The notes below the pieces were generated by a model. That model ran no database searches. It was not told the DNA's origin and saw only the letters and a list, made by a program, of their open reading frames with translations. Below, piece by piece: positions 4,081 to 44,023 of a stretch of DNA of 64,000 nt. Position numbers and translations under genes: made by a program. The DNA lies in NCBI RefSeq assembly GCF_055900595.2, contig NZ_CM148325.1. The stretch is one strand, 5' to 3'. Each line of letters starts with the position of its first letter. Within the stretch, counting starts at the first letter, position 1.

Positions 4081-5550
4081 ATGGTTTCCGAAACTAAAAC
4101 CACAGAAGCGCCGGGCTTACGCCGTGAATTAAAGGCGCGTCACCTGACGATGATTGCCATTGGCGGTTCCATCGGTACAGGTCTTTTTGTTGCCTCTGGC
4201 GCAACGATTTCTCAGGCAGGTCCGGGCGGGGCATTGCTCTCGTATATGTTGATTGGCCTGATGGTTTACTTCCTGATGACCAGTCTCGGTGAACTGGCCG
4301 CATATATGCCGGTTTCCGGTTCGTTTGCCACTTACGGTCAGAACTATGTTGAAGAAGGCTTTGGCTTCGCGCTGGGCTGGAACTACTGGTACAACTGGGC
4401 GGTGACTATCGCCGTTGACCTGGTTGCTGCGCAGCTGGTTATGAGCTGGTGGTTCCCGGATACACCCGGTTGGATCTGGAGTGCGCTGTTCCTCGGCGTT
4501 ATCTTCCTGCTGAACTACATTTCGGTCCGTGGCTTTGGTGAAGCAGAATACTGGTTCTCACTGATCAAGGTTACGACGGTTATTGTCTTTATTGTTGTCG
4601 GCGTGCTGATGATTATCGGTATCTTCAAAGGCGCACAGCCTGCGGGCTGGAGCAACTGGACAATCGGCGAAGCACCGTTTGCTGGTGGTTTTGCGGCGAT
4701 GATCGGCGTAGCTATGATTGTCGGCTTCTCTTTCCAGGGAACCGAGCTGATCGGTATTGCTGCAGGCGAGTCCGAAGATCCGGCGAAAAACATTCCACGC
4801 GCGGTACGTCAGGTGTTCTGGCGAATCCTGTTGTTCTATGTGTTCGCGATCCTGATCATCAGCCTGATTATTCCGTACACCGATCCGAGCCTACTGCGTA
4901 ATGATGTGAAAGACATCAGCGTCAGTCCGTTCACCCTGGTATTCCAACACGCGGGTCTGCTCTCTGCGGCGGCGGTGATGAACGCTGTTATTCTGACGGC
5001 GGTGCTGTCAGCGGGTAACTCCGGTATGTATGCGTCTACTCGTATGTTGTACACCCTGGCGTGTGACGGTAAAGCGCCGCGCATTTTCGCTAAATTGTCG
5101 CGTGGTGGCGTGCCGCGTAACGCGCTGTATGCGACGACGGTGATTGCCGGTCTGTGCTTCCTGACCTCGATGTTTGGTAACCAGACGGTATACCTGTGGT
5201 TGCTGAACACCTCTGGTATGACAGGCTTTATTGCCTGGCTGGGGATTGCGATTAGCCACTACCGCTTCCGTCGCGGTTACGTATTGCAGGGACACGACAT
5301 TAACGATCTGCCGTACCGTTCAGGCTTCTTCCCACTGGGGCCGATCTTCGCATTCATTCTGTGTCTGATTATTACTTTGGGCCAGAACTACGAAGCGTTC
5401 CTGAAAGACACCATTGACTGGGGCGGCGTAGCGGCAACATATATTGGTATCCCGCTGTTCCTGATTATCTGGTTCGGATACAAGCTGATTAAAGGAACTC
5501 ACTTCGTACGCTACAGCGAAATGAAGTTCCCGCAGAACGATAAGAAATAA
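4081..5550 (+). CDS. lysP: Lysine-specific permease (APC family)
   Basis: 489 aa ORF MVSETKTTEAPGLRRELKARHLTMIAIGGSIGTGLF...; length and sequence as recalled for LysP. Confidence 0.95.
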   Translation: MVSETKTTEAPGLRRELKARHLTMIAIGGSIGTGLFVASGATISQAGPGGALLSYMLIGLMVYFLMTSLGELAAYMPVSGSFATYGQNYVEEGFGFALGWNYWYNWAVTIAVDLVAAQLVMSWWFPDTPGWIWSALFLGVIFLLNYISVRGFGEAEYWFSLIKVTTVIVFIVVGVLMIIGIFKGAQPAGWSNWTIGEAPFAGGFAAMIGVAMIVGFSFQGTELIGIAAGESEDPAKNIPRAVRQVFWRILLFYVFAILIISLIIPYTDPSLLRNDVKDISVSPFTLVFQHAGLLSAAAVMNAVILTAVLSAGNSGMYASTRMLYTLACDGKAPRIFAKLSRGGVPRNALYATTVIAGLCFLTSMFGNQTVYLWLLNTSGMTGFIAWLGIAISHYRFRRGYVLQGHDINDLPYRSGFFPLGPIFAFILCLIITLGQNYEAFLKDTIDWGGVAATYIGIPLFLIIWFGYKLIKGTHFVRYSEMKFPQNDKK

Positions 5551-5571
5551 GTTTCCTCCCTTCTTTGCTAA

Positions 5572-5597
5572 GCCCTCTCAACCGAGAGGGCTTTTTT
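5572..5597 (+). terminator. Rho-independent terminator after lysP
   Basis: GCCCTCTC-AACC-GAGAGGGC hairpin followed by TTTTTT. Confidence 0.8.
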
Positions 5598-5648
5598 AAT
5601 TCTATTTCACTGACAAATCATGCGGATATAAATTTTAACATTTGGATT

Positions 5649-5674
5649 GATAATTGTTATCGTTTGCATTATCG
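5649..5674. promoter_or_regulatory. Fur-box-like sequence in cirA promoter region
   Basis: GATAATTGTTATCGTTTGCATTATCG resembles the GATAATGATAATCATTATC consensus; cirA is a classic Fur-repressed gene. Confidence 0.6.
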
Positions 5675-5842
5675 TTACGCCGAAATCAAAAAAGGCTGAC
5701 AAATCAGGGGCTGTTCCGGCTTTCTGGGATGATCACCTGCATACAAATAAGTCCACCGCGATGCTGCCGTACGCAAGGGGACGTGAAGAAGATGTGAGCG
5801 ATAACCCATTTTATTTTCGTAGTTACCTCATGGAGATATGGA

Positions 5843-7822
5843 ATGTTTAGGTTTAACCCCTTCGTACGGGTCGGGCTGTGTTTGTCCGCTATTTCTTGTG
5901 CATGGCCTGTGTTAGCGGTCGATGATGATGGCGAAACGATGGTTGTCACTGCATCTTCCGTTGAGCAAAACCTTAAAGATGCACCCGCCAGTATCAGCGT
6001 CATTACCCAGGAAGACCTGCAGCGAAAACCGGTACAGAATCTGAAGGATGTCCTCAAAGAAGTGCCTGGCGTACAACTGACGAACGAAGGGGATAACCGT
6101 AAGGGCGTTAGTATTCGTGGTCTTGACAGCAGCTACACCCTGATTCTCGTCGACGGTAAACGCGTTAACTCCCGCAATGCCGTCTTCCGCCACAATGATT
6201 TCGATCTGAACTGGATCCCGGTCGATTCCATCGAACGTATTGAAGTGGTCCGTGGCCCGATGTCGTCGCTGTACGGTTCCGATGCGCTCGGCGGTGTCGT
6301 GAATATCATCACCAAAAAAATCGGTCAGAAATGGTCGGGTACCGTTACTGTCGATACCACCATTCAGGAACATCGCGATCGCGGTGATACCTATAACGGT
6401 CAGTTCTTTACCAGCGGACCATTAATTGACGGCGTGCTGGGAATGAAAGCTTACGGCAGCCTGGCAAAACGTGAAAAGGATGACCCACAAAACTCAACGA
6501 CCACCGATACCGGAGAAACGCCGCGTATTGACGGATTCTCCAGCCGCGACGGCAATGTGGAATTTGCCTGGACACCGAATCAAAATCACGATTTTACTGC
6601 CGGATACGGTTTTGACCGTCAGGATCGTGATTCCGACTCGCTGGACAAAAACCGCCTGGAACGTCAGAACTACTCCGTCAGCCATAATGGGCGTTGGGAT
6701 TACGGCACCAGCGAACTGAAATACTACGGTGAGAAAGTCGAAAACAAAAATCCTGGCAACAGCAGCCCGATTACTTCCGAAAGCAATACGGTCGATGGTA
6801 AATACACGTTGCCACTGACGGCGATTAATCAGTTTGTTACGGTTGGCGGTGAATGGCGTCACGACAAACTTAGCGATGCAGTAAACCTGACCGGAGGAAC
6901 AAGCTCCAAAACGTCTGCCAGCCAGTACGCGCTGTTTGTGGAAGATGAATGGCGGATCTTCGAGCCGCTGGCGCTGACGACCGGCGTGCGTATGGACGAT
7001 CACGAAACCTACGGTGAACACTGGAGTCCTCGTGCCTACCTGGTTTACAACGCCACCGACACCGTAACGGTGAAAGGGGGCTGGGCAACGGCATTTAAAG
7101 CGCCTTCTCTGTTGCAACTTAGCCCTGACTGGACGAGCAATTCCTGCCGTGGCGCATGCAAGATTGTGGGTAGCCCGGATCTGAAACCTGAAACCAGCGA
7201 AAGTTGGGAGCTGGGGCTTTACTACATGGGTGAAGAAGGCTGGCTGGAAGGGGTTGAATCCAGCGTGACCGTTTTCCGCAACGATGTAAAAGATCGTATC
7301 AGCATCAGCCGTACGTCTGACGTCAATGCTGCTCCGGGCTACCAAAACTTTGTCGGTTTTACAGCGGACGGTGTGCCAGTATTCAGCTACTACAACGTTA
7401 ACAAAGCACGTATTCAGGGCGTGGAAACCGAACTGAAAATTCCGTTCAACGATGAATGGAAACTGTCGATCAACTACACCTACAACGATGGTCGTGATGT
7501 CAGCAACGGCGAAAACAAACCGTTGTCCGATCTGCCGTTCCATACTGCTAACGGTACGCTGGACTGGAAACCGCTGGCGCTGGAAGACTGGTCATTCTAT
7601 GTTTCCGGACACTATACCGGGCAGAAACGCGCCGACAGCGCGACGGCTAAAACTCCGGGCGGTTATACCATCTGGAATACCGGCGCGGCCTGGCAGGTGA
7701 CCAAAGACGTCAAACTGCGTGCGGGCGTGCTGAACCTTGGCGACAAGGATCTCAGTCGTGACGACTACAGCTATAACGAAGACGGACGTCGTTACTTTAT
7801 GGCAGTGGATTATCGCTTCTGA
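5843..7822 (+). CDS. cirA: TonB-dependent catecholate siderophore / colicin IA-IB receptor CirA
   Basis: 659 aa ORF with signal peptide [25 protein letters not shown], TonB-box region, C-terminal ...AVDYRF. Confidence 0.95.
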
Positions 7823-7832
7823 TGCGAAGATG

Positions 7833-7854
7833 CCCGGCGTCGATCCCGCCGGGC
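7833..7854. terminator. GC-rich hairpin after cirA (possible bidirectional terminator)
   Basis: GCCCGGCG-N6-CGCCGGGC, 8 bp stem; no strong T-run. Confidence 0.5.
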
Positions 7855-7880
7855 ATAATCCCAGAAATTCGCTTCTGGCT

Positions 7881-9203
7881 TTATAACCGATGAAATTTTG
7901 CCAGTAAGGCCAGTGAAAATGTTGTCAGCAAAATGGTAATGACTGCGTAAATATACACTCCTGACCATTCCCAACTGTTTTTCACCATAATAACTGGAAG
8001 CCCTGCCATTGCCGCGCCTAAATAACTAAACAAGCCCCTGAATCCAGTAATGGAACCTGCCGCATCTTTATGCGTAACATCAAGACACCCGACAGCGAAT
8101 AACATATGCGGTCCATACAATGCAAACCCCATGATTGTAAACAGAATAGCCGTTAATGTGTAGGAGACGTCCTGCACCAGCGGTACGAGAACGATGCAAA
8201 TACATAAAGCGATGGCAAAGATTAATCCTGTCATCCAGCGGTTACTTTTAAACATGAAATCGGACAAGTACCCCGCCAGTAATCCCCCAGCAAGTCCACC
8301 TGCTTCAAACCAGGATATAATGGAGTTCGCTTTAATCAGGCTCCAGTTATGAACCTGAGAATAATAAATTTGTGGCCAGTCATTGAGGATGGTGCGTGCA
8401 ATATAGACCGACATATCCCCGAGGATAATGAGCCAAACTAATGGGTTGGTAAGAATATATTTAACGAATATTTGCCAAAAACTGAGATCAACCGGACTTG
8501 CTTTAACTTGTGCAAGTTCTGTCGGGTCGTTGCGCCACTTACCGACGTTAGGCAAACCGAGCGTGCTGGGACGATCTTTTATCGTAAATAAGGCAACAAT
8601 CCCCATAATCAGTGAGATTACACCCGGAACATAAAAGCCCATCTTCCAGCTGCCACTAAAAGCAATAGCAAAGCTTGTCAGGAGAGGCGCAAGACTACCG
8701 CCAATATTATGCGCAGCTTCAACAACTGCCCACCAGCGTCCGCGTTCATTTTTCGAGAACCACGAGGCCATAATTTTTGCCATTGGCGGAAAACTGGTAC
8801 CCTGGAGAATAGCATTAAGGCTATACAGGATATAGAACGCAGCAACGCTGTCTGAAAAACCGAAAAGAATGTTAACAATACCGACGCCAATAAGTACGGG
8901 GCCAGTCATCGCTCGTGGGTTAATTTTATCGACTAACATGCCACCTACAAACTTCATGGAGCCATAAAGAATGTAAAAGACCGACGACATGATAGCGAAA
9001 TCTTGTGCGGTTAATGACGTATCCGTTAACATCGCTGGCATGGCCGCAGAGAAATTCTTGCGGGTTAAGTAAAATACGGCATAAGAGATAAATACAGAGG
9101 TGATGATTTCAATGCGAAATTTTTTATAAGTATGATCAACTTCTTCTTTTGGTTTGACCACCGGTTGGTCGGCCTGGCTGAAAATAAATTTTTTCAAACT
9201 CAT
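7881..9203 (-). CDS. MFS transporter of the organophosphate:Pi antiporter family (GlpT/UhpT/PgtP-like)
   Basis: 440 aa; N-terminal DHTYKKFRIEIITSVFISYAVFYLTRKNFSAAMP and WFSKNERGRWWAVVEAAHNIGGSLAPLL align by eye with the recalled GlpT sequence; not part of K-12 cirA-yeiG interval. Confidence 0.75.
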   Translation of the reverse strand: MSLKKFIFSQADQPVVKPKEEVDHTYKKFRIEIITSVFISYAVFYLTRKNFSAAMPAMLTDTSLTAQDFAIMSSVFYILYGSMKFVGGMLVDKINPRAMTGPVLIGVGIVNILFGFSDSVAAFYILYSLNAILQGTSFPPMAKIMASWFSKNERGRWWAVVEAAHNIGGSLAPLLTSFAIAFSGSWKMGFYVPGVISLIMGIVALFTIKDRPSTLGLPNVGKWRNDPTELAQVKASPVDLSFWQIFVKYILTNPLVWLIILGDMSVYIARTILNDWPQIYYSQVHNWSLIKANSIISWFEAGGLAGGLLAGYLSDFMFKSNRWMTGLIFAIALCICIVLVPLVQDVSYTLTAILFTIMGFALYGPHMLFAVGCLDVTHKDAAGSITGFRGLFSYLGAAMAGLPVIMVKNSWEWSGVYIYAVITILLTTFSLALLAKFHRL

Positions 9204-9235
9204 TGTGAGTTTCCTTTTCTGTGAACCTTATGGCG

Positions 9236-10123
9236 CTATAATTTTTCTTCTATAAAAAAGAGAAGCGACTCGAAACCATTAAAATTAATCTGGTCAGCAA
9301 TTTTTTCCCGGGTTTTAGGTTTTGCTTTCCATGCCACGCCATTTCCGGCATGCAAAAGCATAGGAATATCATTGGCACCATCTCCACAGGCAATGATGTT
9401 TTCACGGCAGATAGCTAACTCTGTCGCTAAATTTATCAGGGTTTGCTTTTTCTTTTCTGCATTCATAATAGGTAAGGTAATTGTATCAGTTAACAGATCT
9501 TCCTTAATGCGCACAGAGTTAGAAAATGCAAAATCAAGTTGATATTTTTCCTTCAATCGCTCAGTAAAAATATCCAAACCTCCAGATATAATTGCCGTCT
9601 TGAATCCTTTTTCTTTTAGTATGGGAAGAATAGTTTCAAGACCTGGTGAAAGAGTCATCTGTTCACAAACTTGATGCAATATATCTTTATGCGTTCCTTT
9701 AAGCATGGCAATTCGCCGGGTAAAACTGGTATCAAAATCGATTTTCCCTTCCATCGCTTCACGGGTCAGTGCGGTGATTTTTTCAGAGATGCCGAGTCTA
9801 CGGGCTATTTCATCGACACCTTCTTCTTCAACAAAGGTGGAATCCATATCAAAGGCAATAATTCCCTGATCCGGTAAGACCCTGGGTTTACGGAAAAAAT
9901 CAAACTGATGATTATCAGCACGGTGACGTAAACCAGCATAAAAAGCAGGGTTGGTAACATCATTTGGTAATACTAGCTTTAGATACTCTCTATTTATTTG
10001 CCTACTGTAATTCGTTGTTAGCGAAAACACCGAGGGGGAAATCTTTAAATGTTGCAGATAATCTTTCAGACATTTTTGGGTGATGTCGATGCCTGTTGGC
10101 GACAAGAAATAAATAATCGTCAT
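9236..10123 (-). CDS. HAD-superfamily phosphatase, SerB-like (phosphoserine phosphatase family)
   Basis: 295 aa; HAD motifs FDMDSTF (DxDST), ISGG, GDGANDIPML in SerB-like order; upstream of and likely co-transcribed with the transporter. Confidence 0.75.
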   Translation of the reverse strand: MTIIYFLSPTGIDITQKCLKDYLQHLKISPSVFSLTTNYSRQINREYLKLVLPNDVTNPAFYAGLRHRADNHQFDFFRKPRVLPDQGIIAFDMDSTFVEEEGVDEIARRLGISEKITALTREAMEGKIDFDTSFTRRIAMLKGTHKDILHQVCEQMTLSPGLETILPILKEKGFKTAIISGGLDIFTERLKEKYQLDFAFSNSVRIKEDLLTDTITLPIMNAEKKKQTLINLATELAICRENIIACGDGANDIPMLLHAGNGVAWKAKPKTREKIADQINFNGFESLLFFIEEKL

Positions 10124-10222
10124 TTACCGCTCCTTTTTATCTGCAATGATTATAATAAGATTTCGTAGAAGCTGATGTATCTGACAATCACAGTTGTGAA
10201 TGTTAAATAAAAGATAAAAAAG

Positions 10223-10276
10223 TACTTTTTTGATACTTTGAAATAATAAGATACTAAAAGTACCATTTTTGATATC
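10223..10276. promoter_or_regulatory. Two direct repeats GTAC(N1-2)TTTTTGATA(C/T) in divergent promoter of the islet (candidate operator)
   Basis: GTACTTTTTTGATAC at 10223-10237 and GTACCATTTTTGATATC at 10260-10276; AT-rich 209 bp intergenic region. Confidence 0.4.
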
Positions 10277-10332
10277 TTTACCAGGATATAAAGAATAACT
10301 ATTTTTCAACGTTGAAGGAATCATTTACAAAT

Positions 10333-11685
10333 ATGGAAAGCTGCATAGATATATTCAAGATAGTTATTGGTCCATCCAGTTCCCGCACAGTCGGGCCAAT
10401 GCGTGCGGCTTATAATTTTGTGTCACAATTGAAACAGCAAGAAATGTTACCTTTGTTGCGGAAAATTGATGTCGAACTTTATGGTGCGCTGTCATTAAGC
10501 CGCAAGTGCCATAATGTTGATGTGGCGATTTATCTCGGTTTGCAAGGACACTTACCTGACAGCGTTGACATTCGCATGGAAATGTCCGCCATCAGGCGTG
10601 CAGAAACTGAGGCGACGCTGGAAGTTATGCCTGGTGTCAACGTCAGTGTATCCATTCTTTCTAATCTACAAGCGCATCCGGGGCACCCTTATGCGATGAC
10701 ATTTCGTGCCAGAGATGACTGGTTTACACTTTATGAAGAAACCTGGTTTTCTATCGGCGACGGTCAAGTGCTAAAAGCAGGAGAGGCGATTATTCCTCCA
10801 TCAGTCACTCCACATCCTTTTGAATTCCAGAACGCAAACGAATTATTAAAACTTTGTCAGCAAAACGGATTATCTGTCGCGGCATTAATGATGAAAAACG
10901 AACTGCACTGCCAGACAGCAGCTTTTTTGCATGACGATCTTCATAAAAAATGGGAAGTAATGAAGGAGGCGGTTTATCGCGGGATGCATACAGAAGGATT
11001 ACTTCCAGGTCCGTTTCAGGTTAACCGTCGTGCCTGTGCTTTATATAAATCGTTGCAGTCAAAGGGGTTTTCCAATGACTTCCTGACTACGCTCAATTGG
11101 GTCAATACTTTTGCCATTGCGGTGAGCGAAGAAAATGCTGCGGGTGGACGTGTCGTGACAGCACCCACCAACGGCGCGAGCGGTATTATCCCGGCTGTAC
11201 TGTGCTGGTATGATAAATTCATTCACGAGCTTGATACATACTCCGTTACCCGCTTTTTACTGACCGCTGGTGCCATCGCCATTCTGTTCAAAAAAAATGC
11301 CTCTATTCTGGGTTCTGAAGTTGGATGTCAGGGGGAAATAGGTGTTGCCAGTTCAATGGCGGCAGCAGGATTAGCAGAACTTATGGGCGGGTCAGTGGCT
11401 CAGGTACTTAGCGCGGCAGAAATTGCGATGGAGCATCATTTAGGTTTGACCTGTGATCCAGTTGGCGGGCAGGTACAAATTCCTTGTATTGAACGAAATG
11501 CTATTTCAGCTGTGAAAGCTATCAACGCAACGACGATGGCGTTGAGTCGCATAAGCGAGCCGTGCATTACGCTGGATGAGATAATTTCCGCGATGTATGA
11601 AACCGGAAAGGATATGAGCGCTAAATACCGTGAAACTTATCATGGCTGTCTGAGCAAATTGCAGCCAAGAAAAAAGGATGCGTAA
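10333..11685 (+). CDS. L-serine dehydratase-like protein (single-chain Fe-S type, SdaA/SdaB/TdcG family)
   Basis: ORF track begins at TTG 10312; ATG at 10333 gives [23 protein letters not shown] matching recalled SdaA N-terminus [23 protein letters not shown]; about 450 aa. Confidence 0.8.
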
Positions 11686-11686
11686 G

Positions 11687-12076
11687 ATGAAATATAATAC
11701 GATGAATAACAACGAAATTATTTTATCACTGTGCGCTCGCATTAAAGAAACGCGTATCTCATTATCATTGACCCAACAGCAGTTAGCCGAGCGTGCATTG
11801 GTGGGCATAGCAACGGTCAAGCGGATTGAAAAGGGGGGAAGTTTAAATCTTGATACTCTCATTTCTCTTCTGCGCGCGCTGAATAAATTGCAAAATCTCG
11901 ATGCCATATTGTTCGAAGCAGAAATGCGTAATTTCAACGAAAATAGTTCCAGCGGCGAAGGGGCAGGGCGACTACAGGTACGCCAGCAACTGACAGATTT
12001 AAACCAGAAGTCTCCAGCCCCGCACGCAGATGACCATAATTTTAGTACGGCGCTGGAAAATACCCTCTGCTGGTGA
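11687..12076 (+). CDS. XRE-family helix-turn-helix transcriptional regulator
   Basis: 129 aa; HTH segment LSLTQQQLAERALVGIATVKRIEKG; AGGA 8 nt upstream of ATG 11687; follows sdaA-like stop directly. Confidence 0.65.
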   Translation: MKYNTMNNNEIILSLCARIKETRISLSLTQQQLAERALVGIATVKRIEKGGSLNLDTLISLLRALNKLQNLDAILFEAEMRNFNENSSSGEGAGRLQVRQQLTDLNQKSPAPHADDHNFSTALENTLCW

Positions 12077-12946
<870 letters not shown>

Positions 12947-13170
12947 TCATCATACCGTTTATTCAATGTGCTGTGAGTAACTTTCACTTCCGTATATACA
13001 TAACGATGTTTTAACATCTGCTGATGAAAGGCAGCGGCAATTACAATAATTATCGCTGTGAATACTGGATTATGTGCGCCGCCTCACGCACAATAATCAG
13101 GCTGTAAATCAGCTTAATAACTTTGCCCCCACGCAGGGCGGAGGCGTCACACCTGCAGGAGAAATCATAA

Positions 13171-13839
13171 ATGCCATCACTCAGTAAAGAAGCGGCCCTG
13201 GTTCATGAAGCGTTAGTTGCGCGAGGACTGGAAACACCGCTGCGCCCGCCCGTGCATGAAATGGATAACGAAACGCGCAAAAGCCTTATTGCTGGTCATA
13301 TGACCGAAATCATGCAGCTGCTGAATCTCGACCTGGCTGATGACAGTTTGATGGAAACGCCGCATCGCATCGCTAAAATGTATGTCGATGAAATTTTCTC
13401 CGGTCTGGATTACGCCAATTTCCCGAAAATCACCCTCATTGAAAACAAAATGAAGGTTGATGAAATGGTCACCGTGCGCGATATCACCCTGACCAGTACC
13501 TGTGAACACCATTTTGTTACCATCGATGGCAAAGCGACGGTGGCTTATATCCCGAAAGATTCGGTGATCGGTCTGTCAAAAATTAACCGTATCGTGCAGT
13601 TCTTTGCCCAGCGTCCGCAGGTGCAGGAACGTCTGACGCAGCAAATTCTCATTGCGCTACAAACGCTGCTGGGCACCAATAACGTGGCTGTCTCTATCGA
13701 TGCGGTACATTACTGCGTGAAGGCGCGCGGCATCCGCGATGCAACCAGTGCCACGACAACGACCTCTCTTGGTGGATTGTTCAAATCCAGTCAGAATACG
13801 CGCCACGAGTTTCTGCGCGCTGTGCGTCATCACAACTGA
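13171..13839 (+). CDS. folE: GTP cyclohydrolase I
   Basis: 222 aa [27 protein letters not shown]...; family signature CEHH. Confidence 0.95.
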
Positions 13840-13855
13840 TTAAAAGGCAGGAACC

Positions 13856-15013
13856 ATGGAGCGCAACGTCACGCTCGATTTTGTTCGCGGCGTCGCCATT
13901 CTGGGGATCCTGCTATTAAACATCAGCGCCTTTGGGTTACCAAAGGCGGCTTATCTCAATCCCGCCTGGTACGGCGCTATTACGCCGCAGGATGCATGGA
14001 CCTGGGCATTACTCGATCTCATCGGTCAGGTGAAATTCCTCACGCTTTTTGCGTTGCTGTTTGGTGCTGGCCTGCAAATGTTGCTACCCCGTGGCAAACG
14101 CTGGATCCAGTCGCGGTTAACACTGTTAGTCTTGTTGGGCTTTATTCACGGTTTATTGTTCTGGGACGGCGATATTCTGTTGGCTTACGGGCTGGTGGGC
14201 TTAATCTGTTGGCGGCTGGTGCGCGATGCGCCATCGGTAAAAAGCCTGTTTAATACCGGCGTCATGCTTTATCTGGTGGGGCTTGGCGTTTTGCTGTTGT
14301 TGGGGTTGATTTCAGACAGTCAGACCAGCCGCGCCTGGACGCCGGATGCATCGGCTATTTTGTATGAAAAATACTGGAAGCTTCATGGCGGCGTTGAAGC
14401 GATCGGTAACCGTGCCGATGGAGTTGGGAACAGTTTACTGGCACTGGGCGCACAGTATGGCTGGCAACTGGCAGGGATGATGCTAATTGGCGCGGCGCTG
14501 ATGCGCAGTGGCTGGCTGAAAGGGCAGTTTAGCTTGCGCCATTATCGGCGTACCGGTTTTGTGCTGGTGGCGATTGGGGTGATCATTAACCTTCCAGCGA
14601 TCGCCCTGCAATGGCGGCTGGACTGGGCATATCGCTGGTGCGCCTTCTTACTTCAGATGCCGCGGGAACTGAGTGCGCCGTTTCAGGCGGTTGGCTATGC
14701 GTCGCTGTTTTATGGTTTCTGGCCGCAATTGAGCCGCTTTAAGCTGGTGCTCGCGATCGCCTGCGTCGGACGGATGGCGCTGACCAACTATCTATTGCAA
14801 ACGCTGATTTGTACCACGCTTTTTTATCACCTCGGTTTGTTTATGCAGTTTGACCGTCTGGAATTGCTGGCGTTTGTTATTCCGGTATGGCTGGCGAATA
14901 TTCTCTTCTCTGTTATCTGGCTGCGTTACTTCCGTCATGGGCCGGTGGAATGGCTCTGGCGTCAGTTAACTTTACGTGCTGCCGGACCTGCATTATCTAA
15001 AACATCAAGATAA
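13856..15013 (+). CDS. yeiB: Inner membrane protein YeiB (DUF418)
   Basis: 385 aa polytopic membrane ORF immediately downstream of folE. Confidence 0.88.
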   Translation: MERNVTLDFVRGVAILGILLLNISAFGLPKAAYLNPAWYGAITPQDAWTWALLDLIGQVKFLTLFALLFGAGLQMLLPRGKRWIQSRLTLLVLLGFIHGLLFWDGDILLAYGLVGLICWRLVRDAPSVKSLFNTGVMLYLVGLGVLLLLGLISDSQTSRAWTPDASAILYEKYWKLHGGVEAIGNRADGVGNSLLALGAQYGWQLAGMMLIGAALMRSGWLKGQFSLRHYRRTGFVLVAIGVIINLPAIALQWRLDWAYRWCAFLLQMPRELSAPFQAVGYASLFYGFWPQLSRFKLVLAIACVGRMALTNYLLQTLICTTLFYHLGLFMQFDRLELLAFVIPVWLANILFSVIWLRYFRHGPVEWLWRQLTLRAAGPALSKTSR

Positions 15014-19069: not shown

Positions 19070-20080
19070 ATGAGTGCGTTAAATAAGAAAAGTTTTCTTA
19101 CTTACCTGAAAGAGGGCGGTATTTACGTCGTTCTTTTAGTTTTGCTGGCGATTATTATTTTCCAGGACCCAACTTTTTTAAGTCTGTTGAACTTAAGTAA
19201 TATTCTCACCCAGTCATCGGTGCGTATTATTATCGCGCTTGGTGTGGCAGGATTAATTGTCACCCAGGGGACCGACCTTTCTGCGGGACGTCAGGTAGGG
19301 CTGGCAGCCGTGGTGGCAGCGACGTTATTGCAGTCCATGGATAACGCTAACAAAGTATTCCCGGAAATGGCGACGATGCCGATTGCGCTGGTAATTCTGA
19401 TTGTCTGTGCCATTGGCGCGGTGATCGGTTTGATCAACGGCCTGATTATCGCTTATCTCAACGTGACGCCATTCATTACCACGCTCGGCACGATGATTAT
19501 CGTCTACGGCATCAACTCGCTCTATTACGACTTTGTCGGGGCGTCGCCAATTTCTGGTTTTGACAGTGGTTTCTCTACCTTTGCTCAGGGCTTTGTTGCG
19601 CTGGGGAGCTTCCGTCTCTCTTACATCACTTTCTACGCGTTGATTGCGGTGGCATTCGTCTGGGTGTTGTGGAACAAAACCCGTTTCGGTAAGAACATTT
19701 TTGCCATTGGCGGTAACCCGGAAGCGGCGAAAGTTTCTGGTGTCAACGTTGGCCTGAACCTGCTGATGATCTACGCGTTGTCTGGTGTGTTCTATGCCTT
19801 TGGCGGGATGTTAGAAGCCGGCCGTATCGGCTCTGCCACCAACAACCTCGGCTTTATGTATGAGCTGGATGCTATCGCAGCGTGTGTGGTGGGCGGTGTA
19901 TCGTTCAGCGGTGGTGTAGGGACGGTGATTGGTGTGGTGACCGGGGTAATTATCTTTACCGTCATCAACTATGGCCTGACGTATATCGGCGTAAACCCAT
20001 ACTGGCAGTACATCATCAAAGGGGCGATTATTATCTTCGCCGTAGCGCTGGATTCACTGAAATACGCGCGTAAGAAATGA
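19070..20080 (+). CDS. mglC: Galactose ABC transporter permease
   Basis: 336 aa polytopic membrane ORF following mglA. Confidence 0.93.
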   Translation: MSALNKKSFLTYLKEGGIYVVLLVLLAIIIFQDPTFLSLLNLSNILTQSSVRIIIALGVAGLIVTQGTDLSAGRQVGLAAVVAATLLQSMDNANKVFPEMATMPIALVILIVCAIGAVIGLINGLIIAYLNVTPFITTLGTMIIVYGINSLYYDFVGASPISGFDSGFSTFAQGFVALGSFRLSYITFYALIAVAFVWVLWNKTRFGKNIFAIGGNPEAAKVSGVNVGLNLLMIYALSGVFYAFGGMLEAGRIGSATNNLGFMYELDAIAACVVGGVSFSGGVGTVIGVVTGVIIFTVINYGLTYIGVNPYWQYIIKGAIIIFAVALDSLKYARKK

Positions 20081-20092
20081 TGTGAATGTGGG

Positions 20093-20140
20093 TATTGCCG
20101 GATGCGCCGCATCCGGCAATCGGTGCCAAATGCCGGATGC
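20093..20140. repeat. REP-like palindromic element downstream of mglC
   Basis: GCCGGATGCGCCGCATCCGGCAA ... GCCGGATGCG motifs. Confidence 0.7.
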
Positions 20141-20150
20141 GTCTCTGATT

Positions 20151-21386
20151 TTACAACGTTACCGGGTGTTCTTTCTCTCCCTTCTTAAACTTCACTTCCC
20201 CGAGATCAATACAACCAACCGGGCAAACATGACCACAAAGCAGACAACCCACGCACTTCTCGGTATTACAATGCGGTGTGCGCGTTTTCTCGCTCCATTC
20301 CATCGCCTGGTGACCGCCGTCGTAACAGGAAATATAACAGCGTCCACAGCCAACACATTTATCGAGATTGATATGGGGATAGACGATATAGCTACGGTCT
20401 AAATCTTCCGCCGGGACAATATTGTGATTCGCCAGACCTACCATCTCCTGCAACGAATCAAATCCCTGATCGGCGAGATAATGCGATAACCCGCTCGCCA
20501 TATCTTCCACTATCCGATACCCGTACTGCATAATGCCGGTGGTCACCTGTAACGTTGCTGCGCCGAGCAATAAAAACTCCGCAGCATCTTCCCAGGTTTC
20601 AATACCGCCGATACCGCTGATCGGGAAATCGCGCAGCTCTGGATGGGTGCGCATTTGCTGAATAAAGCGTAGGGCGATCGGTTTTACCGCTTTACCGGAA
20701 TATCCGGAAATACTCGATTTACCGTTAACGATCGGCATACCAATTTTCTGATTAAGATCGATATTGGTAATGGATTTAACGGTGTTAATCGCCGCAATGC
20801 CATCTGCGCCGCCGCGTTTTGCCGCCAGCGCCACTTCGCACATATCACCGATATTTGGCGTCATCTTCGCCAGCATCGGCAGCTTAGAACCGCGTTTCAC
20901 CGCCCGACAATATTTTTCTACCAGTTCCGGGCTTTGCCCGACATCACTACCCATCGCATGAGAAGTCATTTGCGGACAGGAGAAGTTACACTCGATCATA
21001 TCGGCGCCAGCTTCTTGCACTAGCCGCGCCAGATCCTCCCACTGCTGTTCATTTTCGCCCATGATCGAAGCTATCAATACTTTGTCCGGATAATCTTCTT
21101 TCAGCCGACGCAGGGCGGCCAGATTCTCCTCCAGAGGATGTTCGGCAATCTGCTCCATATTTTTGAAGCCGATAAAACCGGTATCTTCTTTCACCAGATG
21201 ATCAAAACGTGGTGAGACTTCGTTGGCGATAAAAAAGCCGATCGTTTTAAATACCACGCCACCCCAGCCCGTGTCGTAGGCTTTGGCGCACATCTCATAG
21301 CAGTTGCCTACCGGCGAAGAAGAGAGGCAGAACGGGTTGGGAAACTTCACGCCGCAAAAGGTAATCGAAAGATCTTTCGTTAACAT
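20151..21386 (-). CDS. preA: NAD-dependent dihydropyrimidine dehydrogenase subunit PreA
   Basis: [26 protein letters not shown]...; C-terminal 4Fe-4S cysteine clusters; start taken at second Met of ORF. Confidence 0.9.
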
Positions 21387-22618
21387 GAGCAAGCTCCCTC
21401 TAAATAGTGATGAATCGCCTCGGCGGCTTCTTTCCCGGTTTTCACGGCATAAACCACGGTTTTGTCACCCTCAACAATATCGCCAGCAGCAAAGACTTGC
21501 GGGTCGCGGGTCTGGTAATTTTGTGTTTTGATGGTGTTACGCTGCGGCTCTAACTCCGCAAAGGCATCCAGTCTGGCATGCTGACCGACGGCGAGAATAA
21601 TTTTATCTGCCGCCATCGTCAGTTCGCCCGGTAAGCGTACATGCTTAAACGTGACTTTATTGCCTTCCACGGCCACTGGTGTGAATCCATCGATGATCGA
21701 AACGCCCAACTCCCGGGCGCTGGCAAACTCTTTTTCGCTTGCCGGAAACTCATCTAACTCTTCACGTGCTACGCAGGTTACCGCCTGACAGCCGAGAACT
21801 TTCAGCGTGCTGGCAACGTCCATCGCGACATCACCGCCGCCGATAATTAATGCGCTTTGTGGAATGCTGATATCGCCCTGCGCCTGCCGTGCACGTTGCA
21901 AGAAGTCGACGGCAATCTCAACGTCGCTATGCTCAAACAGCGGTAGCCCGGAACCGCCCGACAACCCTACGGTGACAAGTACTGCGCGGTTTTCCGCTTT
22001 CAGTTGCTCCAGGGTGAGTACTTTACCGATTTCGTTATTGCACTTAATGGTCACCCCCATTTTTTCGATACGGGCGATCTCTGCATCCAGCACGGTTTGC
22101 GGCAAACGAAATTGCGGAATACCGTTACACAGCCAGCCACCGGGTTGCGCTTCTTTTTCATAAATAGTGACGTCGTACCCCATATTTGTCAGCGTCACGC
22201 TGGCCTGCAATCCAGCAGGACCTGCGCCAATAATGGCGACTTTGCCGAGCGTTTTAGTACCAGGCTGATAAATTTCCATCCCGGTTTGTTGTTCAAAATC
22301 AGTGATAAAACGCTGTAAGCGACCGATATCAATGGGATCATCAACACCGGCACGGGTACAACCGCTTTGACATAATTTCTCCGTCGGGCACACTCTGGCA
22401 CAAACGGCACCGAGGGCATTATTTTCGCGAATTGTCTCGGCAGCGCCTTTAAAATTACGAAAGTAGATTGAGCGTATAAATTTCCCCGGATCGGTTTGTG
22501 CCGGGCAAGCCTGACTACAGGGCGCGTCGTGACATAATAAACAGCGAGAGGCTTCTTTAATCGCCAGTAAAGGCGTAAAAGCCGGAGTGAGTTCATCCAG
22601 ATAATTTTGTTGCGGCAT
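21380..22618 (-). CDS. preT: Dihydropyrimidine dehydrogenase subunit PreT
   Basis: 412 aa [14 protein letters not shown]...; FAD/NAD Rossmann GAGPAG; overlaps preA start (coupling). Confidence 0.9.
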
Positions 22619-22650
22619 GTGATCTTCCTTAATGCTATGAGTAATTAAGG

Positions 22651-22780
22651 CGAACGCTAAATATACTCGTCATACTTCAAGTTGCATGTGCTGCGTCTGC
22701 GTTAGCTCACCCCAGTCACTTGTCGCCTTCCTGCAACTCGAATTATTTAGAGCATAAATATTGCTTGCTGATATTAAGGC
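22651..22780. repeat. ERIC (IRU) intergenic repeat
   Basis: Contains GTCATACTTCAAGTTGCA ... GCTCACCCCAGTCACTT core recognised from ERIC consensus (reverse orientation). Confidence 0.7.
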
Positions 22781-22803
22781 TAAGCGTGTGGGGAAATTTA
22801 AAC

Positions 22804-22819
22804 TGTGAAAGCATTCACA
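22804..22819. promoter_or_regulatory. Perfect CRP half-site pair TGTGA-AAGCAT-TCACA upstream of preTA
   Basis: Read directly; about 190 bp upstream of preT start codon. Confidence 0.55.
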
Positions 22820-22904
22820 AATAGCTGCGGTTCAGAATGTTATATCCGCAGCTTATTGACTGAAGTAATAATTATTCTCAATAATTAACAGGGGAGGGAC
22901 AATA

Positions 22905-23981
<1,077 letters not shown>

Positions 23982-24013
23982 TGATGCGACGTTTATCAGT
24001 GTGTCAGACCTGA

Positions 24014-39814: not shown

Positions 39815-41530
39815 TTACTCCACTTCCTGCCAGTTTTTCCGCTTACTGGTTTTACCGATCCCCGGATTCATGCTGTTGGTCGGATCGTTCTCGCGATAGA
39901 ACTTCTGCAACGTCTCCGGTGCTTTATACAAATGACCGACGTTATGCTCGGCAGGGTATTGCGCGCCGCGCTGCTGTAGCAGTTCCAGCATCTGTTCTTT
40001 CAACGCATGCACATCCACGCCTTTTTTAACGATGTAATCCTGATGGAAGACATAGCACATAAAATGGCCGTAATAGAGCTTGTGCACCAACTGACTGTCG
40101 ATCTCCGGCGGTAAATGCTCATACCACTCGGTGTCGTTACGCCGCAGAGCGATATCCAGCGCCAGAATGTCTTCGACTTCATCGGAATGCACCGCCTGAT
40201 AACGAATTGCTGCGCCCGCAGCGGCGAAACGGTGTAAAAACGCTTTGCTGCCTTCCTCCGGCGTACAGACAAAGAAATCGCCCTCGGCCTGTTTGAAATA
40301 ATCCACCAGCCACGATTTTGCTTCACCGACGCCATCGCCCGCCATTTTTAACAGCAGATGATGTTCATATTTATCGCGCCAGTTTTTCATGCGCGGCGGT
40401 AAATGGCTGGGGAACAGGTGACCGAATTTTTGCATCGCACGGTCGGTAAAATGCGGACGGAAGAATTTCACTTTCTCCAGCATCGCATCGGTGCGTCCCT
40501 TGAGATTAAAGAAGAACGGCATCTTGTCGGTGCCTAACTTATCAATCATCAGGAAGGTGTCTTTGCCGTATTTTTCCGCAATATCGTAGATATCCCGGTG
40601 CATATATTCCCCGGCAACCGGCAGATTTTCGAAATTAGCCAGAATATGACGGCGGATTTCGGTCAGTACTTCCGGCTGGTTGGTGCCGATATAAAACACC
40701 TGCTGATTTTTTTCTGCTTCGAAGGTATCAAGACGTACCGCAAAGACGGCCAGTTTACCGGCGCAACCGGAGGATTCAAACAGGCGATCCGGGTCGGCGT
40801 TATAACGTGCTGGTGTGTCGGCTTCAATATCACGAACGCGGTGGACATAGTCATAATCGTGGGCGTGACGACCATCGTGGCGCACATCGTCATCTTTGAT
40901 GCGATCGTCATCCAGCTTGCTAAGGATCTGCTCCGGCGTTTCGCCGAGATCAATCCCCAGATGGTTCACCAGCGTCAGTTTGCCGTCTTCATTTATACGC
41001 GCGAATAACGACATTTCGGTATACGCCGGGCCACGCTGTACCAGCGAGCCGCCGGAGTTGTTACAAATACCGCCGATGACTGATGCGCCTATACACGATG
41101 ATCCAATCACTGAGTGCGGTTCGCGTCCCAGCGGTTTGAGAGCTTTTTCCAGCGAATAGAGTGTGGTGCCAGGATATGCCAGCACCTGTTCGCCCTTGCC
41201 GAGAACATGTAGTTTGTCGAGACGCAGGGTGCTGATGATCACGATATCGCGATCATAGTCGTTACCGTTTGGCGTCGAGCCTTCGGTCAGGCCGGTATTA
41301 GCGGCTTGCATCAGAATAATTTTGTCGGCGGTGACGCAGGCTTTCAGCACCCGCCACAATTCCAGTAGTGAGCCAGGGAAAACGACAGCCAGCGCGTCGC
41401 CCTGACCAGAACGGAAGCCCTTGCGATAGCGGGCCGTTTTTGCGGGATCGGTGAGCAGGTGTGAATGACCGACCAGACGGGCAAGTTCATTCAAAAAGGC
41501 TTTATTATCAGTTGTTGTCATGGAAGACAT
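39815..41530 (-). CDS. dld: FAD-dependent membrane D-lactate dehydrogenase
   Basis: MSSMTTTDNKAFLNELARLVG... 571 aa from internal ATG; matches recalled Dld. Confidence 0.93.
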   Translation of the reverse strand: MSSMTTTDNKAFLNELARLVGHSHLLTDPAKTARYRKGFRSGQGDALAVVFPGSLLELWRVLKACVTADKIILMQAANTGLTEGSTPNGNDYDRDIVIISTLRLDKLHVLGKGEQVLAYPGTTLYSLEKALKPLGREPHSVIGSSCIGASVIGGICNNSGGSLVQRGPAYTEMSLFARINEDGKLTLVNHLGIDLGETPEQILSKLDDDRIKDDDVRHDGRHAHDYDYVHRVRDIEADTPARYNADPDRLFESSGCAGKLAVFAVRLDTFEAEKNQQVFYIGTNQPEVLTEIRRHILANFENLPVAGEYMHRDIYDIAEKYGKDTFLMIDKLGTDKMPFFFNLKGRTDAMLEKVKFFRPHFTDRAMQKFGHLFPSHLPPRMKNWRDKYEHHLLLKMAGDGVGEAKSWLVDYFKQAEGDFFVCTPEEGSKAFLHRFAAAGAAIRYQAVHSDEVEDILALDIALRRNDTEWYEHLPPEIDSQLVHKLYYGHFMCYVFHQDYIVKKGVDVHALKEQMLELLQQRGAQYPAEHNVGHLYKAPETLQKFYRENDPTNSMNPGIGKTSKRKNWQEVE

Positions 41531-41725
41531 TTTCCACTCCTTGTGGTGGCGAAAAAATATCACAAACTAGCATAGCGCCTTGTATGACAATTCAGCGAGT
41601 GAATATTTTGAAAATTCAGACAATAAACTGAGCATTCTTTTTCTCTCTCCATCATGCTTATGGCAAACTACGGTTTTTGCACCATTTTCGCTGCCTCGTC
41701 GGGCAACAGAGGAAGAATAATCCAT

Positions 41726-44023
41726 ATGAAATGGCTATGTTCAGTAGGTATCGCGGTGAGTCTGGCCCTGCAACCAGCACTGGCGGATGATTTATTCGGT
41801 AACCATCCATTAACGCCTGAAGCGCGTGATGCGTTCGTCACCGAACTGCTCAAGAAAATGACAGTTGATGAGAAAATTGGTCAGCTGCGCTTAATCAGCG
41901 TCGGCCCGGATAACCCGAAAGAGGCGATCCGCGAGATGATCAAAGACGGGCAGGTTGGAGCGATTTTCAACACCGTAACCCGTCAGGATATCCGCGCCAT
42001 GCAGGATCAGGTGATGGAACTGAGCCGCCTGAAAATTCCTCTTTTCTTTGCTTACGACGTGCTGCACGGTCAGCGCACGGTGTTCCCGATTAGCCTCGGT
42101 CTGGCCTCGTCTTTTAACCTCGATGCGGTGAAAACGGTCGGGCGTGTCTCTGCTTATGAAGCCGCAGATGATGGCCTGAACATGACCTGGGCACCGATGG
42201 TCGATGTCTCGCGCGATCCGCGCTGGGGACGTGCTTCCGAAGGTTTTGGGGAAGATACGTATCTCACTTCGATTATGGGTAAGACTATGGTGGAAGCGAT
42301 GCAGGGTAAAAGCCCGGCAGATCGCTACTCGGTGATGACCAGCGTCAAACACTTTGCCGCTTACGGCGCGGTAGAAGGTGGTAAAGAGTACAACACCGTC
42401 GATATGAGTCCGCAGCGCCTGTTTAACGACTATATGCCGCCGTACAAAGCGGGGCTGGATGCAGGCAGCGGCGCGGTGATGGTGGCGCTGAACTCGCTGA
42501 ACGGCACGCCAGCCACCTCCGACTCTTGGCTGCTGAAAGATGTTCTGCGCGACCAGTGGGGCTTTAAAGGCATCACCGTTTCCGATCACGGCGCAATCAA
42601 AGAGCTGATTAAACATGGCACGGCGGCAGACCCGGAAGATGCGGTGCGCGTGGCACTGAAATCCGGCATCAACATGAGTATGAGCGACGAGTATTACTCG
42701 AAGTATCTGCCTGGGTTGATCAAATCCGGCAAAGTGACGATGGAAGAGCTGGATGACGCTGCCCGTCATGTACTGAACGTGAAATATGATATGGGGTTGT
42801 TTAACGACCCGTACAGCCATCTCGGTCCGAAAGAGTCTGACCCGGTGGATACCAATGCCGAAAGCCGCCTGCACCGCAAAGAAGCGCGTGAAGTGGCACG
42901 CGAAAGCCTGGTGTTGCTGAAAAACCGTCTCGAAACGTTACCGCTGAAAAAATCAGCCACCATTGCGGTGGTTGGGCCACTGGCGGACAGCAAACGTGAC
43001 GTGATGGGCAGCTGGTCCGCAGCCGGTGTTGCCGATCAATCCGTGACCGTACTGACCGGGATTAAAAATGCCGTCGGTGAAAACGGTAAAGTGCTGTACG
43101 CCAAAGGGGCGAACGTTACCAGTGACAAAGGCATTATCGATTTCCTGAATCAGTATGAAGAGGCGGTCAAAGTCGATCCGCGTTCGCCCCAAGAGATGAT
43201 TGATGAAGCGGTGCAAACCGCAAAACAATCTGATGTGGTGGTGGCTGTGGTCGGTGAAGCTCAGGGGATGGCGCACGAGGCTTCCAGCCGTACCGATATT
43301 ACTATTCCACAAAGCCAACGTGACTTGATTGCGGCGCTGAAAGCCACCGGTAAACCGCTGGTGCTGGTGCTGATGAACGGACGTCCACTGGCGCTGGTGA
43401 AAGAAGATCAGCAGGCTGATGCGATTCTGGAAACCTGGTTTGCGGGGACTGAAGGCGGTAATGCGATTGCCGATGTGTTGTTTGGCGATTACAACCCGTC
43501 GGGCAAGCTGCCGATGTCCTTCCCGCGTTCTGTCGGGCAGATCCCGGTGTACTACAGCCATCTGAATACCGGTCGGCCGTATAATGCCGACAAGCCGAAC
43601 AAATACACTTCGCGTTATTTTGATGAAGCTAACGGGGCGCTGTATCCGTTCGGCTATGGTCTGAGCTATACCACCTTCACCGTCTCTGATGTGAAACTTT
43701 CTGCGCCGACCATGAAGCGTGACGGCAAAGTGACCGCCAGTGTGCAGGTGACGAACACCGGTAAGCGCGAAGGGGCGACGGTAGTGCAGATGTACTTGCA
43801 GGATGTGACCGCTTCCATGAGTCGTCCGGTGAAGCAACTGAAAGGCTTTGAGAAAATCACCCTGAAACCGGGCGAAACTCAGACCGTCAGCTTCCCGATC
43901 GATATTGAGGCGCTGAAGTTCTGGAATCAACAGATGAAATATGACGCCGAGCCTGGCAAGTTCAATGTCTTCATCGGCACCGATTCCGCGCGCGTTAAGA
44001 AAGGCGAGTTTGAATTGCTGTAA
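41726..44023 (+). CDS. bglX: Periplasmic beta-glucosidase (GH3)
   Basis: MKWLCSVGIAVSLALQPALA signal peptide; 765 aa GH3. Confidence 0.93.
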   Translation: MKWLCSVGIAVSLALQPALADDLFGNHPLTPEARDAFVTELLKKMTVDEKIGQLRLISVGPDNPKEAIREMIKDGQVGAIFNTVTRQDIRAMQDQVMELSRLKIPLFFAYDVLHGQRTVFPISLGLASSFNLDAVKTVGRVSAYEAADDGLNMTWAPMVDVSRDPRWGRASEGFGEDTYLTSIMGKTMVEAMQGKSPADRYSVMTSVKHFAAYGAVEGGKEYNTVDMSPQRLFNDYMPPYKAGLDAGSGAVMVALNSLNGTPATSDSWLLKDVLRDQWGFKGITVSDHGAIKELIKHGTAADPEDAVRVALKSGINMSMSDEYYSKYLPGLIKSGKVTMEELDDAARHVLNVKYDMGLFNDPYSHLGPKESDPVDTNAESRLHRKEAREVARESLVLLKNRLETLPLKKSATIAVVGPLADSKRDVMGSWSAAGVADQSVTVLTGIKNAVGENGKVLYAKGANVTSDKGIIDFLNQYEEAVKVDPRSPQEMIDEAVQTAKQSDVVVAVVGEAQGMAHEASSRTDITIPQSQRDLIAALKATGKPLVLVLMNGRPLALVKEDQQADAILETWFAGTEGGNAIADVLFGDYNPSGKLPMSFPRSVGQIPVYYSHLNTGRPYNADKPNKYTSRYFDEANGALYPFGYGLSYTTFTVSDVKLSAPTMKRDGKVTASVQVTNTGKREGATVVQMYLQDVTASMSRPVKQLKGFEKITLKPGETQTVSFPIDIEALKFWNQQMKYDAEPGKFNVFIGTDSARVKKGEFELL

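Follow-up and report, generated by a model that had tools for sequence, protein, structure and literature searches.

A four-gene enterobacterial module, deleted from most E. coli genomes, that may import and catabolise O-phospho-L-serine

The characterised systems glpT, uhpT with uhpABC, and pgtP with pgtABC share one transporter family, the organophosphate antiporter (OPA) family (TC 2.A.1.4), with a common fold and common phosphate-binding residues, and they follow one logic: an intact phosphoester is brought in against inorganic phosphate (Pi) and is then metabolised in the cytoplasm. For serine catabolism the systems to be compared are sdaCB, tdcABCDEFG and sdaA, and sdaA, sdaB and tdcG are the only L-serine deaminase genes named in a review from 2026 on gut L-serine (PMC13168631). 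For phosphoserine hydrolysis they are SerB, the phosphoserine phosphatase (PSP) of Methanocaldococcus jannaschii (PDB 1F5S) and the structure 4EZE, which have in common a HAD-IB catalytic domain, its motifs and a set of phosphoserine-specific residues. Here we describe a locus in which members of these three groups stand side by side. It lies in a 64,000-nucleotide stretch of contig NZ_CM148325.1 (RefSeq assembly GCF_055900595.2; the whole stretch is referred to as the window hereafter), and it consists of four intact genes between cirA and yeiG, arranged as two divergent operons: genes for a SerB-type phosphatase and an OPA-family transporter on the minus strand, and genes for an Fe-S L-serine dehydratase and an XRE-family regulator on the plus strand. 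As in the serine-degrading systems named above, an Fe-S L-serine dehydratase is thus found beside a transporter predicted to supply its substrate. No paper characterising this block was found in the literature, in keeping with the initial annotation of the window, whose writer knew of no characterised E. coli system of this architecture.

The proposal towards which we lean, taken as one statement, is that this old enterobacterial module imports O-phospho-L-serine, dephosphorylates it and deaminates the product to pyruvate under the control of the XRE protein. In this pathway, the OPA-family transporter would exchange external O-phospho-L-serine for internal Pi, the SerB-type phosphatase would hydrolyse the phosphoserine to L-serine and Pi, the latter feeding the antiporter, and the Fe-S dehydratase would convert L-serine into pyruvate and ammonium, which would also avert a toxic build-up of serine. 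The XRE protein most likely represses both promoters, acting through two 20-bp boxes and/or a TCACA-N2-TGTGA dyad in the divergent control region. What the analysis shows is the gene content of the block, the families to which its proteins belong, their conserved residues, and the synteny, selection and history of the locus; from these we infer the transporter substrate, the antiport mode, the DNA site of the regulator and repression as its way of acting. Two observations in particular lend weight to the order of import, dephosphorylation and deamination: the four genes occur together in every enterobacterial genome that bears them, and elsewhere the same transporter clade is paired with a different SerB-type phosphatase. 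The initial annotation had proposed a pathway for phospho-amino acids, with O-phospho-L-serine or phosphothreonine as candidate substrates. Its phosphoserine branch is sustained by this linkage and by the SerB and ammonia-lyase cut-offs described below, with the substrate of the transporter as the inferred part. The alternative branch, from phosphothreonine to 2-oxobutyrate, appears unlikely, since Fe-S L-serine dehydratases are specific for L-serine.

The gene identities and the two operons of the initial annotation were borne out by family scores and coordinates. On the minus strand, the HAD-IB phosphatase gene (9236-10123, 295 aa) comes first and the gene for the major facilitator superfamily (MFS) transporter (7881-9203, 440 aa) comes second, separated by a 32-nt spacer that carries a Shine-Dalgarno sequence. 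On the plus strand, the dehydratase open reading frame (ORF) extends over 10312-11685, with the conserved start at ATG 10333 (450 aa according to the RefSeq annotation and the orthologues), and the gene for the XRE-family helix-turn-helix regulator occupies 11678/11687-12076 (129-132 aa; 129 aa from 11687). Its start codon lies 1 nt past the dehydratase stop codon, so the two genes form an operon. Family-model E-values of 1e-62 to 1e-164, orthologues in five genera and ratios of nonsynonymous to synonymous substitution rates (dN/dS) of 0.03-0.19 establish that the four are real genes and not chance ORFs. A further ORF of 66 aa (10124-10324, minus strand) sits in the variable part of the divergent spacer and was taken as spurious. 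All the module proteins can be assigned to known superfamilies, and three carry generic names in RefSeq, which annotates the HAD protein as SerB.

The HAD protein scores 207.6 bits against the serB model TIGR00338 (cut-off 144.15), and its orthologues from Salmonella and Citrobacter werkmanii score 209 and 212 bits; the cut-off of the full-length E. coli-type SerB model PRK11133 is not reached (201 bits, cut-off 413). The phosphomonoesterase motifs that an alignment was expected to reveal are all present, motifs I-IV being kept in 13 orthologues: DxDxT (D92, D94), ISGG, K and GDGAND. In the M. jannaschii enzyme (1F5S/1L7P), the contacts to the serine moiety are made by E20, M43, F49 and R56, and all four are kept in the alignment with 1F5S and in the 13 orthologues. 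The catalytic domain follows a fast-evolving N-terminal domain (residues 1-85), for which no Pfam match was obtained. The identity of 41% to K-12 SerB covers the catalytic domain only, the N-terminal 85 residues being unrelated. A full-length orthologue has a solved structure, the Salmonella protein of PDB 4EZE (E=1e-117), whose entry is named just 'haloacid dehalogenase-like hydrolase'; we take it to be S. Typhi t0658, a target of the Enzyme Function Initiative.

The transporter is an OPA-family protein, as had been supposed. It matches GlpT (1PW4) over residues 7-426 with E=2e-69 and SLC37A4 with E=1e-50, and Pfam MFS_1 is recorded for all of its orthologues. In the 1PW4 alignment, the GlpT residues R45, K80, H165, R269, D274 and E299 are kept; among them, the phosphate-binding residues R45, R269, K80 and H165 are retained in the islet transporter and in its whole clade. 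The scores against the curated NCBIfam models all lie below the respective cut-offs: 427/564 bits for UhpC, 344/408 for the PgtP subfamily, 280/633 for GlpT, 218/750 for PgtP and 199/497 for UhpT. Pairwise identity is 40% to UhpC (the closest K-12 relative), 33% to GlpT and 29% to UhpT. With every curated cut-off missed and an identity of 40% at most, the protein is an OPA member outside every characterised subfamily. Its clade is narrow and is delimited by steps in identity: 88-95% within Enterobacteriaceae, 77-81% for Gallibacterium and 67-68% for Photobacterium lutimaris and a metagenome, and then a fall to 43%. At 67 positions the clade is invariant and differs from all five outgroups. These clade-invariant changes include N162E, N262D, V365H, T388R, G156R and G322W in GlpT numbering, the first four of which introduce acidic or basic side chains where all the outgroups are neutral. 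In GlpT, N162 contacts the organic moiety of the substrate. The acidic and basic gains would fit the recognition of a zwitterionic amino-acid group.

The genomic neighbours of this transporter clade were compared outside the Enterobacteriaceae as well. In P. lutimaris and one metagenomic locus, the transporter gene adjoins a SerB-type gene, with the order of the two genes reversed. This phosphatase shares just 35% identity with the islet HAD protein and 37-50% with K-12 SerB, yet the enzymes of both loci pass the SerB cut-off as well (243 and 236 bits). Gallibacterium, a bird-associated genus of Pasteurellaceae, carries a solo transporter with all the clade-specific residues, and this solo type was found in at least two genomic contexts (loci L006 and L007), which suggests that the transporter gene has spread horizontally on its own in Gallibacterium and similar organisms. 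In two metagenomic loci, a gene for a D-2-hydroxyacid dehydrogenase and a YajQ gene adjoin transporter homologues (L008, with the dehydrogenase at 1-831, and L005 at 1993-2925); L008 has neither the dehydratase nor the XRE gene. E162, H366 and R389, which define the clade, are missing from the L005 transporter, and its specificity is therefore probably different. Those D-2-hydroxyacid dehydrogenases match generic models only, which do not discriminate between substrates.

The dehydratase scores 548 bits against TIGR00720 (type 2, single-chain L-serine ammonia-lyase; cut-off 345) and is 50% identical to SdaA, and its three Fe-S cluster cysteines (in CQGE, LTCDP and IPCIERN) are kept in comparison with the Legionella enzyme LpLSD (4RQO). 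It belongs to a distinct clade, the members of which are at least 67% identical before identity drops to 54% for the canonical enzymes; this clade was found only in Escherichia, Citrobacter, Salmonella, Scandinavium and a few other contigs. Three departures mark it. One is that the motif reads GPSSSRT in 15 of the 15 clade clusters, whereas GPSSSHT is found in 105 of the 105 other homologues; the histidine of the latter motif lies near the Fe-S cluster in LpLSD. Another is that TGKGH is replaced by SRKCH. The last is that the C-terminal cysteine is absent in 14 of the 15 clade clusters, as against its presence in 101 of the 105 other homologues. In LpLSD this cysteine is an intrinsic competitive inhibitor, according to the title of Thoden et al. 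(2014), as cited in PMC12647591. In a transposon-sequencing (Tn-seq) study under iron restriction, mutants in STM14_2709 grew better (PMC9308263); by its numbering this gene adjoins the regulator gene and is presumably the Fe-S dehydratase gene.

The control region between the two operons (10124-10332) has a GC content of 33% and consists of invariant islands in an otherwise variable spacer, as seen in an alignment of the divergent spacer from ten genomes. On the minus-strand side, a candidate -10 element of the phosphatase-transporter operon, ATTATAAT (10149-10156, minus strand), corresponds to the invariant or near-invariant alignment columns 46-53, and a GGAG lies 7 nt upstream of the phosphatase start codon. 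The TCACA-N2-TGTGA dyad, ATCACAGTTGTGAATG (10187-10202, columns 84-100), lies about 45-60 nt upstream of the transcription start inferred for this operon and is a candidate site for a regulator. Two candidate operators follow: box 1, AAAAAGTACTTTTTTGATAC (10217-10236), with the motif AAAAGTAyyNTTTTTGATAy, and box 2, AAAAGTACCATTTTTGATAT (10256-10275), with the same motif. Each of the boxes is an imperfect dyad of the form GTAyyr-N4-TGATAy, that of box 2 reading GTAyCA-N4-TGATAy. Box 2 overlaps TTGATA, a candidate -35 element of the dehydratase promoter, and its motif has one match in the 64-kb window as compared with 0.03 expected by chance. Consensus scans for promoters and terminators gave scores no better than those of shuffled sequences. 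Readings of the conserved elements as CRP, FNR or Pho-box sites were rejected by eye on account of misfitting half-site arrangements. Within box 1 (10221-10236), the window has T6, whereas T7 is found in the otherwise near-identical genome of strain Z0117EC0005 and in three further E. coli alleles that were inspected; this gap and two mismatches are all that sets the window apart from Z0117EC0005 over 12.5 kb. Either a homopolymer sequencing error or a true alteration of the half-site spacing in the candidate operator could explain the T6.

The regulator itself has a Pfam HTH_3 domain (PF01381) at residues 19-66 (E=3.5e-9), and no other domain was detected with Pfam; its orthologues are 70-95% identical and share a conserved C-terminal tail of about 55 residues. 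Transposon insertions in its Salmonella counterpart, STM2195, ranked at the 15th-17th percentile in Typhimurium grown in LB, as compared with the 36th-65th percentile in Typhi (PMC3487940). The under-representation in Typhimurium would fit a costly de-repression, which is weak evidence for a repressor. The literature searches found no study on the function of STM2195-STM2198, the Salmonella module genes, apart from two incidental mentions in Tn-seq work, and no paper on phosphoserine transport, uptake or catabolism was found.

The distribution of the module was examined by a scan of genomes representing individual species and by subsequent tblastn searches with the nine genes of the locus. The full module was found at the same position in S. 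enterica (three subspecies, including arizonae and diarizonae), in at least eight Citrobacter species and in E. whittamii, and dehydratase-based look-ups found the four-gene module at this site in Scandinavium also. In these genera the position is between yeiG and lysP, next to cirA or to another gene for a TonB-dependent receptor; in most Citrobacter, the receptor at the cirA position is only about 35% identical and lies on the opposite strand. In one further enterobacterial lineage, the left flank of the module differs and yeiG still abuts the regulator gene. The Salmonella transporter is 91% identical and belongs to a cluster of 6,223 sequences, and on its contig yeiG and cirA enclose the same four genes. 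The module thus appears to be standard in Salmonella and is not a peculiarity of E. coli. Within E. coli it is rare: it was found in 85 of 5,426 complete genomes, always as a single copy and always on the chromosome, and the flanks were matched in 5,422. Partial copies occur in four more genomes, at least three of them interrupted by IS1. About 98% of the complete genomes carry a deletion scar at this position. In K-12 MG1655, where the convergence of cirA and yeiG and the absence of the block had been given correctly, the two genes are separated by a 31-bp spacer. The flank pieces of the empty site are 265-278 bp apart in all 29 sampled islet-free genomes, and the similarity of these spans suggests a common deletion scar.

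Comparison of the junctions with the islet-free strain NCTC11121 located the islet-specific segment at 7840 to about 12079-12085, slightly wider than the limits 7855-12076 first proposed. In islet-free E. coli about 23 bp take its place. The left breakpoint (7839/7840) is inside the terminator hairpin of cirA, after GCCCGGCG, and the right one falls within the last codons of yeiG, which ends in LQE* in the window and in LLK* in the empty allele. No flanking direct repeats were found at the junctions in the empty-site comparison. As the initial annotation had stated, the block is visibly AT-rich (GC 0.33-0.47 within it vs 0.50-0.55 in the flanks; GC at third codon positions 0.34-0.47 vs 0.57-0.63), and neither an insertion sequence (IS) nor an integrase ORF was found near it in the ORF list, nor a tRNA gene in the whole window by a tRNA scan. 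Likewise, no Rfam family matched within 7000-13500 at E≤1.

The age of the module follows from its divergence. Between E. coli and Salmonella, the identities are 91% aa and 78.6% nt for the transporter, 75% and 73% for the regulator, 72% and 70.8% for the dehydratase, and 64% and 69% for the phosphatase, as compared with 85-96% aa and 78-86% nt for the flanking genes. Because these values are comparable to or below those of the flanks, a recent transfer is not indicated. The GC content of the module (0.43-0.50) is below that of the flanks (0.52-0.57) in every genus, and any horizontal origin would therefore predate the split of the genera. On these comparisons the module is judged to be at least as old as the split of Escherichia, Salmonella, Citrobacter and Scandinavium, and the block to be an ancestral enterobacterial segment that was deleted in most E. 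coli, not an insertion. Purifying selection acts on each of the four genes: in comparisons of E. coli alleles with one another and with E. whittamii, dN/dS is 0.03-0.05 for the transporter, 0.16-0.19 for the phosphatase, 0.11-0.15 for the dehydratase and 0.10 or less for the regulator. The module is also decaying in some lineages, through a nonsense change, a frameshift, an altered C-terminus and IS1 insertions (in three E. coli). In a Salmonella-like contig (L034, 4542-5864), a Trp codon of the transporter gene has become a stop codon and the dehydratase is shortened; the transporter gene is frameshifted in the type strain of C. koseri, and the transporter C-terminus is altered in that of S. 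arizonae.

Several points weigh against phosphoserine as the substrate and have to be set beside the alternatives. The transporter reaches no curated cut-off, and its specificity therefore cannot be read from family membership; the Gallibacterium transporter, 77-81% identical, stands alone in unrelated contexts; and in L008 a D-2-hydroxyacid dehydrogenase gene lies directly upstream of the transporter-phosphatase pair. No experimental support for a phosphoserine substrate was found in the literature. With SerB and three serine dehydratases of its own, E. coli has no strict need of a dedicated set, and periplasmic phosphatases could make the import of intact phosphoserine unnecessary. The first three points, together with the fact that sugar phosphates, glycerol-3-phosphate or phosphoglycerates are the substrates of its closest characterised relatives, would suit a transporter of some other organophosphate (2- or 3-phosphoglycerate, phosphoenolpyruvate, a sugar phosphate, phosphoethanolamine, phospho-D-serine or phosphothreonine), with the phosphatase and dehydratase acting further along in concert with housekeeping enzymes. 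We regard this as unlikely, yet as the alternative that deserves the most attention. The solo Gallibacterium transporter and the L008 dehydrogenase are compatible with phosphoserine, but neither requires it; a hydroxypyruvate reductase beside the transporter would equally suit serine catabolism via hydroxypyruvate, and the L005 case, the second one with an adjacent dehydrogenase gene, loses force through the probable difference in specificity noted above. What tells against another organophosphate is the tight linkage, seen repeatedly and in two gene arrangements independent of each other, to SerB-type phosphatases in which the phosphoserine-specific residues are retained, and the linked L-serine dehydratase in all the Enterobacteriaceae examined. 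The dehydratase raises a doubt of its own: it departs from the other homologues at two near-universal features, and its substrate may therefore not be plain L-serine. The loss of the self-inhibiting C-terminal cysteine and the gain of two arginines open a bolder reading, namely that the enzyme is no longer a plain L-serine dehydratase and acts on a beta-substituted amino acid that is phosphorylated or anionic in some other way; it might, for instance, eliminate phosphate directly from phosphoserine in a beta-elimination. The module would then be a new phospho-amino-acid pathway with the first known OPA transporter dedicated to a phospho-amino acid. This is a speculative idea to which we give little credence; unless the dehydratase does have a new substrate, no mechanistic surprise is expected from the module.

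The remaining explanations concern the role of the module, of one protein and of the block as a whole. The phosphatase passes a biosynthetic equivalog model and is annotated as SerB, and an excess of serine is toxic when dehydratases are missing; the module might accordingly manage internal serine and phosphoserine, combining an alternative SerB with a serine-detoxifying dehydratase, and the transporter might be an exporter or a Pi exchanger. This seems improbable to us: the synthesis and destruction of serine from one divergent control region would be futile without an external source, the characterised OPA members are uptake systems, and the module is dispensable in 98% of E. coli. Even less can be said for the MFS protein being a UhpC-like membrane sensor and no carrier. 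UhpC is its best-scoring family and, at 40%, its closest K-12 relative; however, the score falls short of the UhpC cut-off (427 vs 564), the sole regulator in the module is the cytoplasmic XRE protein, and no UhpA, UhpB or uhpT partner was found in any of the about 20 islet-clade loci examined, whereas the nearest relative outside the clade (P0015) is in a uhpT-uhpA-uhpB-uhpC locus. The sensor was therefore rejected on genomic context. Finally, the initial annotation had presented the block as an islet, and its low GC relative to the flanks and its rarity in E. coli would be expected of a recent insertion into this lineage by horizontal transfer. Such an event is very hard to reconcile with the occurrence of the block at the same site in four other genera with a divergence at or above that of the flanks, with the want of mobility genes, tRNA genes and direct repeats, and with a low GC in every genus, which places any acquisition before the genera split; the full-length 'plasmid' matches, which might have indicated mobility, proved to be chromosome fragments or mislabelled chromosomes.

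The surroundings of the module provide some further observations. To its left are lysP (4081-5550, plus strand) and, as immediate neighbour, cirA (5843-7822, plus strand), which encodes 659 aa here and is thus 12 nt different in length from the remaining E. coli and Salmonella copies, which encode 663 aa. To its right is yeiG (12077-12913, minus strand), followed by folE and yeiB. The stop codon of the regulator gene (12074-12076) abuts that of yeiG (12077-12079), exactly as first annotated; the two genes converge with zero spacer in E. coli and with a 12-nt overlap in Salmonella, and the arrangement is kept even where the other flank of the module differs (locus L032). No intrinsic terminator was predicted between them, and with the two genes converging, their transcripts should overlap in antisense. 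As for the lineage of the window, its flanking genes are 3.5-8% different from those of islet-bearing and islet-free E. coli alike, and the regions 4081-15013, 20000-24000 and 40000-44000 are about 3.5-5% diverged from nearly all of the 5,426 complete genomes. The most diverged gene is yeiG (8%, synonymous divergence dS about 0.43). Window positions 20000-24000 are 100% identical to strain Z0117EC0005 and about 95% identical to most others, and for 40000-44000 (bglX-dld) the best complete-genome match is 98.6%, most being at about 96.5%. This suggests that the source is a deep-branching lineage, or that the window is a long introgressed or mosaic region, of E. coli. The other islet-bearing strains have ordinary E. 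coli flanks, and the block is hence not confined to this lineage.

Host cells release phosphoserine, and it is also set free from phosphoproteins, for instance casein and egg phosvitin. If the proposal holds, Salmonella, Citrobacter and a minority of E. coli would be able to use intact phosphoserine as a source of carbon and nitrogen; no dedicated uptake route for it is described in the literature searched. The OPA family would gain a new class of substrate, the solved structure 4EZE would gain a function, and a fourth L-serine dehydratase, atypical in structure, would be added to those of enterobacteria; links between serine catabolism and bacterial fitness in the inflamed gut are currently emerging. 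E. coli itself, in which some strains have the module and others do not, offers natural knock-outs.

Set against the systems with which we began, the module differs in several respects. In comparison with glpT, uhpT and pgtP, its transporter forms a separate clade with charged substitutions and reaches no curated cut-off; a dedicated phosphatase and an enzyme for the next catabolic step are encoded beside it; an XRE-type regulator stands in place of a two-component system; and the predicted substrate is a phospho-amino acid. In comparison with sdaCB and tdc, the place of the amino-acid permease is taken by a predicted organophosphate antiporter, and a phosphatase step comes between uptake and deamination. 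The dehydratase differs from the canonical SdaA-type enzymes in being without the C-terminal cysteine and the GPSSSHT histidine. The phosphatase, for its part, differs from the housekeeping SerB in its other, fast-evolving N-terminal domain and in its catabolic genomic context.

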